Shown here: positions 18,543 to 41,030 of the stretch, in pieces
How positions within the stretch are numbered: position 1 is the first letter of the stretch
How the letters are laid out: every line of letters starts with the position of its first letter
Assembly: GCF_011045215.1 (NCBI RefSeq)
Contig: NZ_CP049201.1
Strand: one strand, 5' to 3'
DNA: 64,000 bases
Source of the DNA: Escherichia coli
Lineage (GTDB): Bacteria > Pseudomonadota > Gammaproteobacteria > Enterobacterales > Enterobacteriaceae
Notes under the pieces: generated by a model
The model's database searches: none
What the model was told of the DNA's origin: nothing
The model's input: only the letters and a program-made list of their open reading frames with translations
Position numbers and translations under genes: made by a program

Positions 18543-21500
18543 ATGACTATGTTCCAGTATTACAAACGATCACGGCATTTTGTTTTTTCAGCATTTATTG
18601 CTTTTGTTTTTGTCTTGTTATGCCAGAACACGGCGTTTGCGCGGGCGTCATCGAATGGTGATCTGCCGACAAAAGCGGACCTGCAGGCGCAACTTGACTC
18701 ACTAAATAAACAAAAAGATCTTTCTGCTCAGGACAAACTGGTGCAGCAGGATCTGACAGATACATTAGCCACCCTCGATAAAATCGATCGCGTAAAAGAA
18801 GAGACCGTTCAGCTACGGCAAAAAGTCGCTGAAGCGCCGGAAAAAATGCGCCAGGCGACCGCGGCGTTAACAGCACTTAGCGATGTCGATAACGACGAAG
18901 AAACGCGCAAAATTCTGAGCACGCTTTCGTTGCGCCAGCTGGAAACTCGCGTTGCCCAGGCGCTGGACGATTTGCAAAACGCACAAAACGATCTGGCGTC
19001 TTATAACAGCCAGCTGGTTTCGTTACAGACGCAGCCCGAACGCGTGCAAAATGCGATGTATAACGCTTCGCAGCAGCTGCAACAAATTCGCAGTCGTCTG
19101 GATGGGACTGATGTCGGCGAGACTGCCTTACGTCCCAGCCAGAAAGTGTTAATGCAGGCTCAGCAGGCGTTGCTGAATGCGGAGATTGACCAGCAGCGTA
19201 AAAGCCTGGAAGGGAATACCGTCTTGCAGGATACCTTGCAAAAGCAACGTGATTACGTGACGGCGAACAGCGCCCGTCTGGAGCACCAGTTGCAGCTGTT
19301 GCAAGAAGCGGTAAACAGCAAGCGCCTGACTTTAACCGAAAAAACGGCGCAGGAAGCCGTCTCCCCGGATGAAGCCGCGCGTATTCAGGCTAATCCGCTG
19401 GTGAAGCAGGAACTGGAAATTAACCAGCAGTTAAGTCAGCGTCTGATTACCGCGACTGAAAACGGTAATCAGTTGATGCAGCAAAACATTAAAGTCAAAA
19501 ACTGGCTGGAGCGGGCGCTGCAATCGGAACGCAATATTAAAGAGCAGATTGCCGTCCTGAAGGGCAGCCTGCTGTTGTCTCGTATCCTTTACCAGCAACA
19601 ACAAACGCTGCCCTCGGCGGATGAACTGGAAAACATGACCAACCGCATCGCGGATTTGCGTCTCGAACAGTTTGAAGTTAACCAGCAGCGTGATGCACTC
19701 TTCCAGAGCGATGCGTTCGTCAACAAACTGGAAGAAGGTCACACCAACGAAGTCAACAGCGAAGTTCACGATGCGTTATTGCAAGTGGTTGATATGCGTC
19801 GCGAATTGCTGGATCAACTCAACAAACAGTTGGGTAACCAGCTGATGATGGCCATTAACCTGCAAATCAACCAGCAGCAGTTAATGAGTGTGTCGAAAAA
19901 CCTGAAATCCATCCTGACTCAGCAAATCTTTTGGGTGAACAGTAACCGTCCAATGGACTGGGACTGGATCAAAGCGTTCCCGCAAAGCCTGAAAGATGAA
20001 TTTAAGTCGATGAAAATTACGGTGAACTGGGAAAAAGCCTGGCCCGCCGTTTTTATCGCTTTCCTCGCTGGTTTGCCGCTGCTGTTGATTGCCGGGCTGA
20101 TCCACTGGCGTCTGGGGTGGCTGAAAGCGTATCAACAAAAACTGGCTTCCGCTGTGGGTTCCCTGCGTAACGACAGCCAGCTCAACACACCAAAAGCGAT
20201 CCTTATCGACCTGATCCGTGCACTGCCGGTGTGCCTGATTATTCTCGCGGTTGGCCTGATTCTGTTGACCATGCAGCTCAACATCAGCGAATTGCTATGG
20301 TCGTTCAGTAAAAAACTGGCGATTTTCTGGCTGGTGTTTGGCCTGTGCTGGAAGGTACTGGAGAAGAACGGCGTTGCCGTGCGTCACTTCGGCATGCCGG
20401 AACAGCAGACCAGCCACTGGCGTCGGCAAATTGTCCGCATCAGTCTCGCGTTGCTGCCTATCCATTTCTGGTCTGTGGTGGCAGAACTTTCCCCGCTGCA
20501 TCTGATGGATGATGTGCTGGGGCAGGCGATGATTTTCTTCAACCTGCTGCTGATTGCCTTCCTGGTATGGCCAATGTGCCGCGAAAGCTGGCGTGATAAA
20601 GAGTCGCACACCATGCGACTGGTCACCATTACCGTGCTGTCGATTATCCCGATTGCATTGATGGTGCTGACTGCCACGGGTTATTTCTACACCACGCTGC
20701 GCCTCTCCGGGCGTTGGATTGAAACCGTTTATCTGGTGATCATCTGGAACTTGCTCTACCAGACGGTATTGCGCGGCTTAAGCGTAGCGGCGCGGCGTAT
20801 CGCCTGGCGTCGTGCGCTGGCGCGTCGGCAGAATCTGGTGAAAGAGGGCGCAGAAGGTGCCGAACCGCCGGAAGAACCCACCATTGCACTGGAACAGGTT
20901 AACCAGCAGACGCTGCGTATTACCATGTTGCTGATGTTTGCGCTGTTCGGTGTCATGTTCTGGGCAATTTGGTCTGATTTGATCACCGTGTTCAGCTATC
21001 TCGACAGCATTACGCTCTGGCATTACAACGGTACTGAAGCTGGTGCTGCGGTGGTGAAAAACGTCACCATGGGCAGTCTGTTGTTTGCGATTATCGCCTC
21101 AATGGTGGCCTGGGCGTTGATTCGCAACCTGCCTGGTTTGCTGGAAGTGCTGGTGCTCTCGCGACTGAATATGCGCCAGGGCGCGTCGTATGCCATTACT
21201 ACCATCCTTAACTACATCATTATTGCCGTTGGTGCGATGACGGTGTTCGGATCGCTGGGCGTCTCTTGGGATAAACTCCAGTGGCTGGCCGCAGCATTAT
21301 CCGTAGGTCTTGGTTTTGGTTTACAAGAAATTTTCGGTAACTTCGTCTCCGGTTTGATCATTCTATTCGAACGTCCGGTGCGTATTGGCGATACGGTAAC
21401 CATTGGTAGCTTCTCGGGGACGGTAAGTAAGATCCGTATTCGTGCGACAACGATTACCGATTTCGATCGCAAAGAAGTGATCATCCCGAACAAAGCGTTT

Positions 21501-21905
21501 GTTACCGAGCGTCTGATCAACTGGTCGTTGACTGACACTACTACGCGTCTGGTGATCCGTCTCGGCGTGGCCTATGGCTCCGATCTGGAAAAAGTGCGTA
21601 AAGTGTTACTGAAGGCGGCGACTGAGCACCCAAGGGTGATGCACGAACCAATGCCGGAAGTCTTCTTTACGGCGTTTGGTGCCAGCACGTTGGATCATGA
21701 GCTGCGTCTGTATGTGCGTGAACTGCGTGACCGTAGCCGTACTGTCGATGAGCTAAACCGTACTATCGATCAGCTGTGCCGTGAAAACGACATCAACATT
21801 GCCTTTAACCAGCTTGAAGTGCATTTGCACAACGAGAAGGGCGATGAAGTGACGGAAGTGAAACGCGACTACAAAGGCGACGATCCAACGCCTGCGGTAG
21901 GGTAA
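18543..21905 (+). CDS. mscK: potassium-dependent mechanosensitive channel MscK (KefA)
   Basis: 1120-aa ORF: signal peptide, long coiled-coil periplasmic region, multiple TM helices and a C-terminal MscS-like domain. Confidence 0.95.
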   Translation: MTMFQYYKRSRHFVFSAFIAFVFVLLCQNTAFARASSNGDLPTKADLQAQLDSLNKQKDLSAQDKLVQQDLTDTLATLDKIDRVKEETVQLRQKVAEAPEKMRQATAALTALSDVDNDEETRKILSTLSLRQLETRVAQALDDLQNAQNDLASYNSQLVSLQTQPERVQNAMYNASQQLQQIRSRLDGTDVGETALRPSQKVLMQAQQALLNAEIDQQRKSLEGNTVLQDTLQKQRDYVTANSARLEHQLQLLQEAVNSKRLTLTEKTAQEAVSPDEAARIQANPLVKQELEINQQLSQRLITATENGNQLMQQNIKVKNWLERALQSERNIKEQIAVLKGSLLLSRILYQQQQTLPSADELENMTNRIADLRLEQFEVNQQRDALFQSDAFVNKLEEGHTNEVNSEVHDALLQVVDMRRELLDQLNKQLGNQLMMAINLQINQQQLMSVSKNLKSILTQQIFWVNSNRPMDWDWIKAFPQSLKDEFKSMKITVNWEKAWPAVFIAFLAGLPLLLIAGLIHWRLGWLKAYQQKLASAVGSLRNDSQLNTPKAILIDLIRALPVCLIILAVGLILLTMQLNISELLWSFSKKLAIFWLVFGLCWKVLEKNGVAVRHFGMPEQQTSHWRRQIVRISLALLPIHFWSVVAELSPLHLMDDVLGQAMIFFNLLLIAFLVWPMCRESWRDKESHTMRLVTITVLSIIPIALMVLTATGYFYTTLRLSGRWIETVYLVIIWNLLYQTVLRGLSVAARRIAWRRALARRQNLVKEGAEGAEPPEEPTIALEQVNQQTLRITMLLMFALFGVMFWAIWSDLITVFSYLDSITLWHYNGTEAGAAVVKNVTMGSLLFAIIASMVAWALIRNLPGLLEVLVLSRLNMRQGASYAITTILNYIIIAVGAMTVFGSLGVSWDKLQWLAAALSVGLGFGLQEIFGNFVSGLIILFERPVRIGDTVTIGSFSGTVSKIRIRATTITDFDRKEVIIPNKAFVTERLINWSLTDTTTRLVIRLGVAYGSDLEKVRKVLLKAATEHPRVMHEPMPEVFFTAFGASTLDHELRLYVRELRDRSRTVDELNRTIDQLCRENDINIAFNQLEVHLHNEKGDEVTEVKRDYKGDDPTPAVG

Positions 21906-21965
21906 TAACGAAAGGGGGCGACATTTTGTTGCCCCGAGATTGCTAACAAAGTGCGCGTTGTTCAT

Positions 21966-22064
21966 GCCGGATGCGGCGTGACCGCCTTATCCGGCCTACG
22001 AAACCGCAAAAATTCAATATATTGCAGGAGCGGTGTAGGCCTGATAAGCGTAGCGCATCAGGCA
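21966..22064. repeat. REP (repetitive extragenic palindrome) pair downstream of mscK
   Basis: gccggatgcggcgtgaccgccttatccggcctac and gtaggcctgataagcgtagcgcatcaggc, typical E. coli REP consensus in inverted orientation. Confidence 0.8.
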
Positions 22065-22116
22065 GTTTTGCGTTTGCCCGCAACCTTAGGGGACATTTAG
22101 CCACCCCATTTATTTC

Positions 22117-22278
22117 TCACTTTTCCGCCTCATCATCGCGCGTTAATTTCTTTTCATAATCGCGTTTTACAATATCCAGCGCGCGCAGCACGGTACTGGC
22201 AGGGATCTGATTTTCCTCCAGCAGCACAATCAAATCGACAGCCAGTTTGACATCGTCAGGGGCATTTTCCAGTGACAT
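22117..22278 (-). CDS. ybaM: small protein YbaM (53 aa)
   Basis: Below the ORF-track length cut-off; manual translation of the minus strand gives [53 protein letters not shown] then TGA. Confidence 0.75.
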
Positions 22279-22291
22279 ACTCTCTCCATTG

Positions 22292-22819
22292 CTAGCGGGT
22301 TAAACGCGCTAACCTGTTTTCGATTTTTTCCAGCGCATGGCGACACCGCGCCAGGCGCGCTTCATAGGCTTCCACTTCACGATGCAGCGTTTGCTGTTCC
22401 ACGAGATCGGTCACCCGCGCCAGGCGGGCTCTACGTTCGGCAACCATCTCACGTAGCCGCCGCTCAAAATCCTGATGCTGAATACGTTTACGCTGCCAGC
22501 GGGCAATTTTGGGTGGTGCGCTATCCCACTCGCGTAGCGACCAGGCTGTGGCTTCACGCGCTATAGCCTCCAGTTGCGCCGCCAGATGTTCTGCCAGCCA
22601 GGCGACTTGCGGCAGTTGCTGTTGCTCAACTGCATGACGAAGCGCAGCCAGATTATCGCCCGCCTCGTCGAGACAAGCCTGTAGTGTTGTCGCACGAGTC
22701 TGAAAAAGATGCCTGTCGAAACGAGCACTTAGCGTGGCGAACTGTGACACCGGGGCACAACGCTGACGCAGCGTAGCGAGCTGTCCTTCCAGTTTTTCCA
22801 GCAGCAGGGCGGTTTTCAC
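22292..22819 (-). CDS. priC: primosomal replication protein N-double-prime (PriC)
   Basis: 175-aa basic helical protein; position between ybaM and ybaN. Confidence 0.9.
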
Positions 22820-22888
22820 GATAAGACCTCAATGAAAATGATAATTGTTATGCTAAAGTAGCCACTCTGTAAGCTGACAACACTCAAT

Positions 22889-23266
22889 ATGCAACGAATC
22901 ATTTTAATCATCATTGGCTGGCTGGCGGTAGTGCTGGGTACGCTGGGCGTGGTATTACCGGTATTACCGACGACGCCGTTTATCCTGCTAGCGGCCTGGT
23001 GCTTTGCCCGTTCTTCCCCGCGCTTTCACGCCTGGTTGCTGTACCGCTCATGGTTTGGCAGCTATCTACGTTTCTGGCAGAAACATCATGCGATGCCGCG
23101 CGGTGTCAAACCGCGGGCGATTTTGCTTATTTTGCTCACGTTTGCCATTTCTCTGTGGTTCGTCCAGATGCCATGGGTGCGCATCATGTTGCTGGTAATT
23201 CTCGCCTGTTTGCTTTTCTATATGTGGCGAATTCCGGTGATTGATGAAAAGCAAGAAAAGCACTGA
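22889..23266 (+). CDS. ybaN: DUF454 inner membrane protein YbaN
   Basis: 125-aa ORF with hydrophobic TM segments. Confidence 0.85.
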
Positions 23267-24098: not shown

Positions 24099-26030
24099 AT
24101 GAGTTATCAGGTCTTAGCCCGAAAATGGCGCCCACAAACCTTTGCTGACGTCGTCGGCCAGGAACATGTGCTGACCGCACTGGCGAACGGCTTGTCGTTA
24201 GGGCGTATTCATCATGCTTATCTTTTTTCCGGCACCCGTGGCGTCGGAAAAACCTCTATCGCCCGACTGCTGGCGAAGGGGCTAAACTGCGAAACCGGCA
24301 TTACCGCGACGCCGTGCGGCGTGTGCGATAACTGTCGTGAAATCGAGCAGGGGCGCTTTGTCGATCTGATTGAAATCGACGCCGCCTCGCGCACCAAAGT
24401 TGAAGATACCCGCGACCTGCTGGATAACGTCCAGTACGCTCCGGCGCGTGGTCGTTTCAAAGTTTATCTCATCGACGAAGTGCATATGCTGTCGCGCCAC
24501 AGCTTTAACGCACTGTTAAAAACTCTTGAAGAGCCGCCGGAGCACGTTAAGTTTCTGCTGGCGACGACCGATCCACAGAAATTGCCGGTGACGATTTTGT
24601 CGCGCTGTTTGCAATTTCATCTCAAGGCGCTGGATGTCGAGCAAATTCGCCATCAGCTTGAGCACATCCTCAACGAAGAACATATCGCTCACGAGCCGCG
24701 GGCGCTGCAATTGCTGGCACGCGCCGCTGAAGGCAGCCTGCGAGATGCCTTAAGTCTGACCGACCAGGCGATTGCCAGCGGTGACGGCCAGGTTTCAACC
24801 CAGGCGGTCAGTGCGATGCTGGGTACGCTTGACGACGATCAGGCGCTGTCGCTGGTTGAAGCGATGGTCGAGGCCAACGGCGAGCGCGTAATGGCGCTGA
24901 TTAATGAAGCCGCTGCCCGTGGTATCGAGTGGGAAGCGTTGCTGGTGGAAATGCTCGGCCTGTTGCATCGTATTGCGATGGTACAACTTTCGCCTGCTGC
25001 ACTTGGCAACGACATGGCCGCCATCGAGCTGCGGATGCGTGAACTGGCGCGCACCATACCGCCGACGGATATTCAGCTTTACTATCAGACGCTGTTGATT
25101 GGTCGCAAAGAATTACCGTATGCGCCGGACCGCCGCATGGGCGTTGAGATGACGCTGCTGCGCACGCTGGCGTTCCATCCGCGTATGCCGCTGCCTGAGC
25201 CAGAAGTGCCACGCCAGTCCTTTGCACCCGTCGCGCCAACGGCAGTAATGACGCCAACCCAGGTGCCGCCGCAACCGCAATCAGCGCCGCAGCAGGCACC
25301 GACTGTACCGCTCCCGGAAACCACCAGCCAGGTGCTGGCGGCGCGCCAGCAGTTGCAGCGCGTGCAGGGAGCAACCAAAGCAAAAAAGAGTGAACCGGCA
25401 GCCGCTACCCGCGCGCGGCCGGTGAATAACGCTGCGCTGGAAAGACTGGCTTCGGTCACCGATCGCGTTCAGGCGCGTCCGGTGCCATCGGCGCTGGAAA
25501 AAGCGCCAGCTAAAAAAGAAGCGTATCGCTGGAAGGCTACCACTCCGGTGATGCAGCAAAAAGAAGTGGTCGCCACGCCGAAGGCGCTGAAAAAAGCGCT
25601 GGAACATGAAAAAACGCCGGAACTGGCGGCGAAGCTAGCGGCAGAAGCCATTGAGCGCGACCCGTGGGCGGCACAGGTGAGCCAACTTTCGCTACCAAAA
25701 CTGGTCGAACAGGTGGCGTTAAATGCCTGGAAAGAGGAGAGCGACAACGCAGTATGTCTGCATTTGCGCTCCTCTCAGCGGCATTTGAACAACCGAGGTG
25801 CACAGCAAAAACTGGCTGAAGCGTTGAGCACGTTAAAAGGTTCAACGGTTGAACTGACTATCGTTGAAGATGATAATCCCGCGGTGCGTACGCCGCTGGA
25901 ATGGCGTCAGGCGATATACGAAGAAAAACTTGCGCAGGCGCGCGAGTCCATTATTGCGGATAATAATATTCAGACCCTGCGTCGGTTCTTCGATGCGGAG
26001 CTGGATGAAGACAGTATCCGCCCCATTTGA
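24099..26030 (+). CDS. dnaX: DNA polymerase III subunits tau (full length) and gamma (by frameshift)
   Basis: 643-aa ORF, AAA+ clamp-loader Walker A GTRGVGKTS; the internal slippery site yields gamma. Confidence 0.97.
   Translation: MSYQVLARKWRPQTFADVVGQEHVLTALANGLSLGRIHHAYLFSGTRGVGKTSIARLLAKGLNCETGITATPCGVCDNCREIEQGRFVDLIEIDAASRTKVEDTRDLLDNVQYAPARGRFKVYLIDEVHMLSRHSFNALLKTLEEPPEHVKFLLATTDPQKLPVTILSRCLQFHLKALDVEQIRHQLEHILNEEHIAHEPRALQLLARAAEGSLRDALSLTDQAIASGDGQVSTQAVSAMLGTLDDDQALSLVEAMVEANGERVMALINEAAARGIEWEALLVEMLGLLHRIAMVQLSPAALGNDMAAIELRMRELARTIPPTDIQLYYQTLLIGRKELPYAPDRRMGVEMTLLRTLAFHPRMPLPEPEVPRQSFAPVAPTAVMTPTQVPPQPQSAPQQAPTVPLPETTSQVLAARQQLQRVQGATKAKKSEPAAATRARPVNNAALERLASVTDRVQARPVPSALEKAPAKKEAYRWKATTPVMQQKEVVATPKALKKALEHEKTPELAAKLAAEAIERDPWAAQVSQLSLPKLVEQVALNAWKEESDNAVCLHLRSSQRHLNNRGAQQKLAEALSTLKGSTVELTIVEDDNPAVRTPLEWRQAIYEEKLAQARESIIADNNIQTLRRFFDAELDEDSIRPI
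25382..25393 (+). promoter_or_regulatory. dnaX programmed -1 ribosomal frameshift site (A AAA AAG heptamer plus shifted-frame stop)
   Basis: AAAAAAG at 25382-25388 lies in the dnaX frame as A AAA AAG; the -1 frame reads AAA AAA GAG TGA; upstream SD-like AGGGAG and downstream GC stem-loop (ccggcagccgctacccgcgcgcggccgg). Confidence 0.9.
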
Positions 26031-40484: not shown

Positions 40485-41030
40485 CGTAGGCCGGATAAGG
40501 CGTTCACGCCGCATCCGGCATCCGAGCACCATTGCCTGATGCGACGCTTACGCGTCTTATCAGGCCTACAAACCTGTGCCTGAACCGTAGGCCGGAGAAG
40601 GCGTTCACGCCGCATCCGGCATCCGAGCACCATTGCCTGATGCGACGCTTACGCGTCTTATCAGGCCTACAAACCTGTGCCTGAACCGTAGGCCGGAGAA
40701 GGCGTTCACGCCGCATCCGGCATCCGAGCACCATTGCCTGATGCGACGCTTACGCGTCTTATCAGGCCTACAAACCTGTGCCTGAACCGTAGGCCGGAGA
40801 AGGCGTTCACGCCGCATCCGGCATCCGAGCACCATTGCCTGATGCGACGCTTACGCGTCTTATCAGGCCTACAAACCTGTGCCTGAACCGTAGGCCGGAG
40901 AAGGCGTTCACGCCGCATCCGGCATCCGAGCACCATTGCCTGATGCGACGCTTACGCGTCTTATCAGGCCTACAAACCTGTGCCTGAACCGTAGGCCGGA
41001 GAAGGCGTTCACACCGCATCCGGCAGTCAT
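40485..41030. repeat. tandem array of REP-containing units (BIME-like), five full 101-bp copies plus a degenerate sixth
   Basis: Unit cgtaggccggagaaggcgttcacgccgcatccggcatccgagcaccattgcctgatgcgacgcttacgcgtcttatcaggcctacaaacctgtgcctgaac recurs starting at 40485, 40586, 40687, 40788, 40889 (period exactly 101 bp); generates the identical 76-aa track ORFs on the minus strand. Confidence 0.9.

Follow-up and report, generated by a model that had tools for sequence, protein, structure and literature searches.

We find that the minus-strand frame at positions 22117 to 22278 of a 64,000-nt stretch of the Escherichia coli chromosome NZ_CP049201.1 (hereafter the window) is, virtually beyond doubt, a bona fide coding gene: ybaM, now called rsmS. 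It is an already known gene that specifies the identical K-12 protein within a standard E. coli chromosome. The evidence as a whole is best explained if ybaM/rsmS belongs to the priC-ybaM operon and its product modulates the Csr/Rsm network, a reading to which we assign a probability of roughly 0.85. On this reading, ybaM would be the second gene of the operon, translated from its own Shine-Dalgarno sequence into a cytoplasmic product.

Identification of ybaM/rsmS

The coding sequence comprises 53 codons followed by TGA and is supported by the ORF list, by homology, and by annotation. Inspection of the minus strand places the ATG at 22278 to 22276 and the TGA at 22119 to 22117. A Shine-Dalgarno sequence, GGAGAG, can be read directly from the same strand at 22282 to 22287, and a 5-nt spacer separates its GGAG (22287 to 22284) from the ATG. 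A sequence-only reading of the window had described a 53-codon minus-strand frame at this location, between mscK and priC, and had recognized its product as YbaM. The ORF list and the raw sequence confirm the coordinates, strand, and length, and the frame does lie between mscK (18543 to 21905, plus strand; assigned from how RefSeq annotates a 99.4%-identical E. coli chromosome) and priC (22292 to 22819, minus strand). Recognition as YbaM was likewise correct: 53 of 53 residues are identical to those of E. coli K-12 YbaM (b0466), and the gene sits in the same acrR-mscK / ybaM-priC / ybaN-apt-dnaX context as in K-12, leaving only the name to be updated. The gene has been part of the K-12 annotation, as b0466, for decades. 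The window is colinear with K-12 MG1655 around b0462 to b0470, and the MG1655 gene (b0466, NP_414999.1) shares with the one described here its 53 residues, its 162-nt length, its 13-nt gap to priC, and its 211-nt BIME-containing spacer to mscK. The two coding sequences differ at only 2 nt, both of them synonymous third positions, in codons 38 and 39. In the K-12 record, the product is still listed as "DUF2496 domain-containing protein YbaM"; genomes annotated with PGAP carry the present RefSeq/PGAP name rsmS, with the product described as "pleiotropic regulatory protein RsmS"; all E. coli records listed carry the rsmS annotation. This naming goes back to Monson et al. in 2019 (PMC6418279).

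Two curated profiles place the protein in its family. The Pfam model PF10689 (DUF2496) scored 83.7 bits, above its gathering cut-off of 25 (E = 7.3e-24), and YbaM residues 2 to 44 aligned to positions 1 to 43 of 43, the full length of the model. The equivalog model NF008266, "pleiotropic regulatory protein RsmS," scored 93.2 bits, where its cut-off is 76 (E = 6.1e-27; positions 1 to 45 of 46). An alignment of 83 homologs has a 44-residue core in which A13, A33, and D40 are invariant and L3, A6, L12, V14, D15, L16, I17, L20, E21, L34, and V37 are near-invariant. The corresponding family motif is L-x-x-A-P-x-x-V/I-K/Q-LAVDLIxLLE ... ALxIVxxD, with LAVDLIxLLE near-invariant, and the C-terminal tail across the family is variable in length and mostly polar or acidic. 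YbaM, with its 53 aa, retains every invariant and near-invariant column; its conserved DUF2496 core spans residues 2 to 44, and its variable acidic tail spans residues 46 to 53. Both curated HMM thresholds, the motif, the size, and the synteny with priC all place YbaM within this family.

The sequence-only reading had further held that a length cut-off kept the gene out of the ORF track and that the track contained no ORF here. The first statement stands, since 53 aa is below the 60-aa default floor of the ORF lister. The second hinges on the exact threshold, because a 62-aa plus-strand ORF (21971 to 22159), mostly REP sequence, overlaps the final 43 nt of ybaM. Its advice that short genes in the window be inspected manually was sound, as a real and conserved gene sat below the ORF-length floor.

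Conservation and coding potential

An ORF of the size of ybaM is by itself within chance expectation. In 7 kb we counted 81 ORFs of 30 aa or longer, most of them spurious and many of them far longer and plainly antisense artifacts. Such lengths being common, the frame could be read as an untranslated chance frame in the 3′ UTR of priC. The case for ybaM as a real gene is built on homology, purifying selection, and conserved synteny, not on ORF length. The sequence-only reading would, by its own account, have been refuted by a lack of conservation in related genomes, which is not what we observed. Of 5426 complete E. coli genomes, 5424 carry a single copy of the 162-nt gene, matched over 80% or more of its length. 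When 1.84 billion representatives of 50% clusters were scanned exhaustively with HMMER, 181 gammaproteobacterial representatives were recovered at E ≤ 0.001, 31 of them at E ≤ 1e-10.

We compared ybaM with three E. coli alleles, from O157:H7 FRIK944, CFSAN018748, and APEC O18. Over the core codons 1 to 45, these alleles showed 6, 9, and 5 synonymous differences, respectively, against one nonsynonymous difference (S28R) in each, an excess of synonymous changes with binomial P values of 0.001, 2e-5, and 0.004. All but one of the core differences among the E. coli alleles fall at third codon positions, and pN/pS over 48 codons ranges from roughly 0.06 to 0.3. In distant orthologs (a Tatumella-type sequence, Vibrio sp. 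DW001, and a metagenomic sequence), differences are most frequent at codon position 3, followed by position 1 and then position 2, with pN values of 0.25 to 0.35 against pS values of 0.69 to 0.87. Judged by these substitution patterns, ybaM evolves under purifying selection. A chance frame would not be expected to combine a pN/pS far below 1 within E. coli with a coding-type codon-position pattern in distant relatives, nor to pass curated family cut-offs, to keep its length and frame across 83 aligned homologs, and to carry a correctly spaced Shine-Dalgarno sequence. The conservation pattern thus already refutes that interpretation, leaving it next to no probability.

Two overlapping ORFs were considered as alternative genes and dismissed, the 62-aa plus-strand ORF described above and a 38-aa minus-strand ORF (22230 to 22346); both are without a family match, which also counts against a chance origin of ybaM. 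An Rfam scan of 21700 to 23000 returned no family and so nothing in favor of a structured RNA as the conserved element.

A word-indexed search with YbaM identified 366 relatives. By these counts, DUF2496/RsmS is a small family. Its named members come from Escherichia, Citrobacter, Salmonella, Klebsiella, Erwinia, Pectobacterium, Brenneria, Tatumella, Proteus, Moritella, and Vibrio, and the RsmS representative from Pectobacterium fontis is 64% identical to the YbaM described here.

Allelic variation in E. coli

Two rsmS allele classes occur in E. coli, a K-12 type and an O157 type (window positions 22117 to 22143, codons 46 to 53, and 21906 to 22116; loci L010, L011, and L012). The K-12 type, present in the window, K-12, and APEC O18, encodes 53 aa with the tail TRDDEAEK and is followed by the 211-nt BIME spacer to mscK, and the O157 type, present in FRIK944 and CFSAN018748, encodes 54 aa with the tail QSDEASQSE and is followed by a 38-nt spacer with a single hairpin. 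Divergence between the classes begins exactly at the end of the DUF2496 core. A 90 to 95% identity band holds 1395 of the 5424 genomes, and the examples listed from this band align over nucleotides 1 to 146 only. Codon 28 (22195 to 22197) encodes Ser in the window and in K-12 and Arg in the other E. coli alleles examined; Arg is also found at this position in most of the Enterobacteriaceae homologs examined, and this is the sole nonsynonymous polymorphism seen in the ybaM core.

The neighboring priC shows a different distribution of changes. Relative to K-12 priC, 17 of its 22 nucleotide differences are confined to codons 66 to 103 (22511 to 22622), with nearly identical flanks, and this cluster has the look of a short stretch exchanged by recombination; the adjacent ybaM has only the two differences from K-12 given above. 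Across the locus (21800 to 22900), the best match is E. coli strain 48 from deer feces, at 99.4%, and the other best-matching genomes listed are at 97.6 to 98.2%; the window therefore comes from an E. coli lineage somewhat apart from the common ones. According to how RefSeq annotates strain 48, which is nearly identical, a known feature, the dnaX programmed-frameshift element, lies at approximately 25363 to 25427 of the window (by offset from L001 6564 to 6628).

Organization of the priC-ybaM operon

The 5′ gene of the operon, priC (22292 to 22819, minus strand), encodes 175 aa and is identified by annotation and by its match to PF07445 (PriC; E = 3e-51). Its TAG stop codon lies at 22294 to 22292, and 13 nt separate it from the ybaM ATG. 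A priC-ybaM operon is stated in a review of replication restart (PMC5778457) and by Monson et al. (PMC6418279), who also report a Shine-Dalgarno sequence 5′ of the Pectobacterium gene. Earlier work cited in the latter paper describes an E. coli ybaM mutant that competes poorly under envelope stress, a defect whose complementation required the priC promoter (PMC6418279). A scan with the sigma-70 consensus found no minus-strand promoter site for ybaM or priC and none between the two genes. The sole terminator-like match, at 22294 to 22318 on the plus strand, is antisense at the priC/ybaM junction and was rejected as within chance (1 found, 1.5 expected).

The adjacency of the two genes extends well beyond this window and holds for most of the relatives. 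Directly 5′ of ybaM, priC is found in all E. coli records examined (including K-12, strain 48, O157, and APEC O18), and it is also directly 5′ of the DUF2496 gene in Vibrio sp. DW001 (L005), with a 4-nt overlap, in a metagenomic locus (L008), with an 8-nt overlap, and in L009. In L005 and L008, the overlap of the priC stop with the next start codon suggests that translation of the two genes is coupled. Monson et al. found rsmS always directly 3′ of priC in the genomes that they compared (PMC6418279). An adjacency shared by lineages ranging from Escherichia to Vibrio, in some of which the priC stop codon overlaps the next start codon, would fit a product that partners PriC in replication restart, with the Rsm phenotypes being secondary. 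Genetic data speak against such a partnership. The priC303::kan dnaA508 strain becomes viable again when given a plasmid that carries only priC, in an experiment that controlled for polarity on ybaM (PMC539235), and the protease phenotype of a Pectobacterium priC transposon mutant is complemented by rsmS alone and not by priC (PMC6418279). Some distant lineages, moreover, have a ComFB gene rather than priC immediately 5′. We consider a role of YbaM as a PriC partner very unlikely. A looser connection, in which YbaM/RsmS might report the state or the expression of the PriC pathway to the CsrA regulon, could also lie behind the adjacency and its often overlapping codons, although we regard this as improbable too, if slightly less so. 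Modulation of the Csr/Rsm network by the product of the second gene remains our preferred account.

The different neighbor occurs at three loci of distant metagenomic origin, where priC is not adjacent to the DUF2496 gene. In each of them, a ComFB gene (PF10719) lies directly 5′ of the DUF2496 gene with overlapping stop and start codons (L003, 1827 to 2292; L004, 484 to 949; L006, 174 to 643). The order in L003 is priC, a histone-deacetylase-family gene, the ComFB gene, and the DUF2496 gene. The ComFB gene is a possible second functional partner of the DUF2496 gene.

The region between ybaM and mscK

The convergent genes mscK and ybaM share a 211-nt 3′ region that holds two REP elements in inverted orientation (21965 to 21999 and 22035 to 22064), identified from their inverted repeats and together forming a BIME (21965 to 22064). 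With 8 occurrences in the window, the REP core exceeds the 0.16 expected. These two REP elements explain why a 1.1-kb query of the locus returned about 127,000 E. coli genome matches. The 3′ region as a whole has an unusually stable predicted fold (z = -4.25). Adjoining the mscK stop codon, at 21911 to 21935 on the minus strand, sequence and folding reveal a G+C-rich hairpin-capable segment (GGGGCAAC..GTCGCCCC, then CUUUCGUUAUU). This segment is a possible terminator for both priC-ybaM and the convergent mscK; the terminator scan did not call it and found no canonical terminator 3′ of ybaM. Elsewhere in the window, across positions 40485 to 41025, a 101-nt unit is repeated in tandem 5.4 times at 99% identity; we take this array to be a BIME cluster because each unit contains two REP-like palindromes.

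Predicted structure of YbaM

YbaM is a protein of 6.0 kDa with a net charge of -5 and a pI of about 4.5. AlphaFold2, run with the 83-sequence alignment, predicted helices at residues 8 to 22 and 27 to 52, with a mean pLDDT of 91.8 and a pTM of 0.64. The model confidently predicts that YbaM folds as an acidic two-helix hairpin. A sequence search of the PDB with the 53-aa protein gave no match at E ≤ 1, and a Foldseek search of the PDB with the model gave no match at E ≤ 10; between them, the sequence and fold searches yielded no informative structural relative.

RsmS orthologs and the Csr/Rsm network

The functional assignment draws on orthologs of YbaM. In Pectobacterium atrosepticum, transposon insertions that suppressed an rsmB mutant were isolated in priC and in the small ORF that follows it, ECA1172 (rsmS), the priC insertions working via polarity on rsmS; mutation of rsmS also bypasses a relA/spoT block (PMC6418279). 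[quoted passage not shown] In Serratia, three CRISPR-Cas systems are derepressed when rsmS is mutated, the rsmA mutation is epistatic to that in rsmS, and the action of rsmS depends on neither rsmB nor pigX (csrD) (PMC8450108). Monson et al. equate rsmS with E. coli ybaM (PMC6418279). The RsmS proteins of P. atrosepticum (ECA1172) and Serratia resemble YbaM in belonging to pfam10689 (residues 2 to 44), in their size of about 6 kDa, and in being encoded downstream of priC in an operon. They differ from it in their C-terminal tails, which are unrelated to that of YbaM, and priC and rsmS are 37 bp apart in Pectobacterium compared with 13 nt here. The Rsm-suppressor phenotype has been demonstrated in the Pectobacterium and Serratia orthologs only, not in E. 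coli, and our literature search returned no report of Csr phenotypes for an E. coli ybaM mutant. By orthology with these proteins, YbaM most likely modulates the Csr/Rsm post-transcriptional network.

As to mechanism, we propose that YbaM may bind the RNA-binding protein CsrA (RsmA) directly and raise its effective activity on target mRNAs, independently of CsrB/RsmB-type decoy RNA. Direct binding is suggested by a single yeast two-hybrid match between YbaM and CsrA, cited in PMC6418279, and the Rsm phenotype is carried over from the orthologs; we put the odds of such a facilitator mechanism at about even. A reduced half-life of ybaM mRNA in a csrA51 E. coli strain is also cited there (PMC6418279). 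The literature search for newer work on the mechanism of YbaM/RsmS returned nothing past the 2019 and 2021 papers, and it found no study that demonstrates an RsmS-CsrA complex biochemically or structurally. Other considerations also count against facilitation. In Pectobacterium, deletion and overproduction both raise exoenzymes, which a facilitator accommodates only via an argument from dose or stoichiometry, and for a strongly acidic YbaM acting on the basic RNA-binding CsrA, competition with RNA would be the more natural expectation.

Alternatively, YbaM/RsmS could act without binding CsrA directly, for example, by altering how stable CsrA is or how much of it is made, or via a different partner in a pathway of envelope stress or of the stringent response. 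Monson et al. themselves name a change in the stability of RsmA and "an undiscovered pathway" as alternatives (PMC6418279). The support for an interaction cited in that paper is one unvalidated two-hybrid match, and both the bypass of the relA/spoT block by rsmS mutation and the envelope-stress defect of the E. coli ybaM mutant would fit an indirect route (PMC6418279). The epistasis of rsmA in Serratia tells against it, placing RsmS upstream of or at RsmA (PMC8450108). We hold this route only tentatively, well behind direct facilitation.

Protein partners of CsrA are known in FliW (Bacillus and Campylobacter) and CesT (EPEC). YbaM may share with these a mode of action in which a protein binds CsrA and changes its activity without decoy sRNAs. 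If the resemblance extended to its outcome, YbaM would be a CsrA antagonist that, as FliW and CesT do, occupies the basic RNA-binding surface or blocks CsrA allosterically. The strongly acidic character of YbaM, including the conserved acidic residues D15, E21, and D40, is consistent with this, and RsmS overproduction raises exoenzymes and OHHL as if RsmA were titrated (PMC6418279). Loss of rsmS, however, also raises exoenzymes, suppresses the rsmB mutant, and derepresses cas, all of which amount to reduced RsmA activity, and YbaM resembles neither FliW nor CesT in sequence or fold. Antagonism is in our judgment unlikely, and facilitation of CsrA is the mechanism that we favor for YbaM.

Implications

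As a discovery, ybaM/rsmS matters little, given that rsmS was named in 2019 and that PGAP calls the gene in essentially every E. coli genome. The locus does illustrate that a floor of 60 codons conceals real, conserved, and functionally important small genes, and homology-based or Shine-Dalgarno-aware calling is therefore needed. The interest that remains lies in how RsmS/YbaM acts on CsrA and in its role within E. coli itself.
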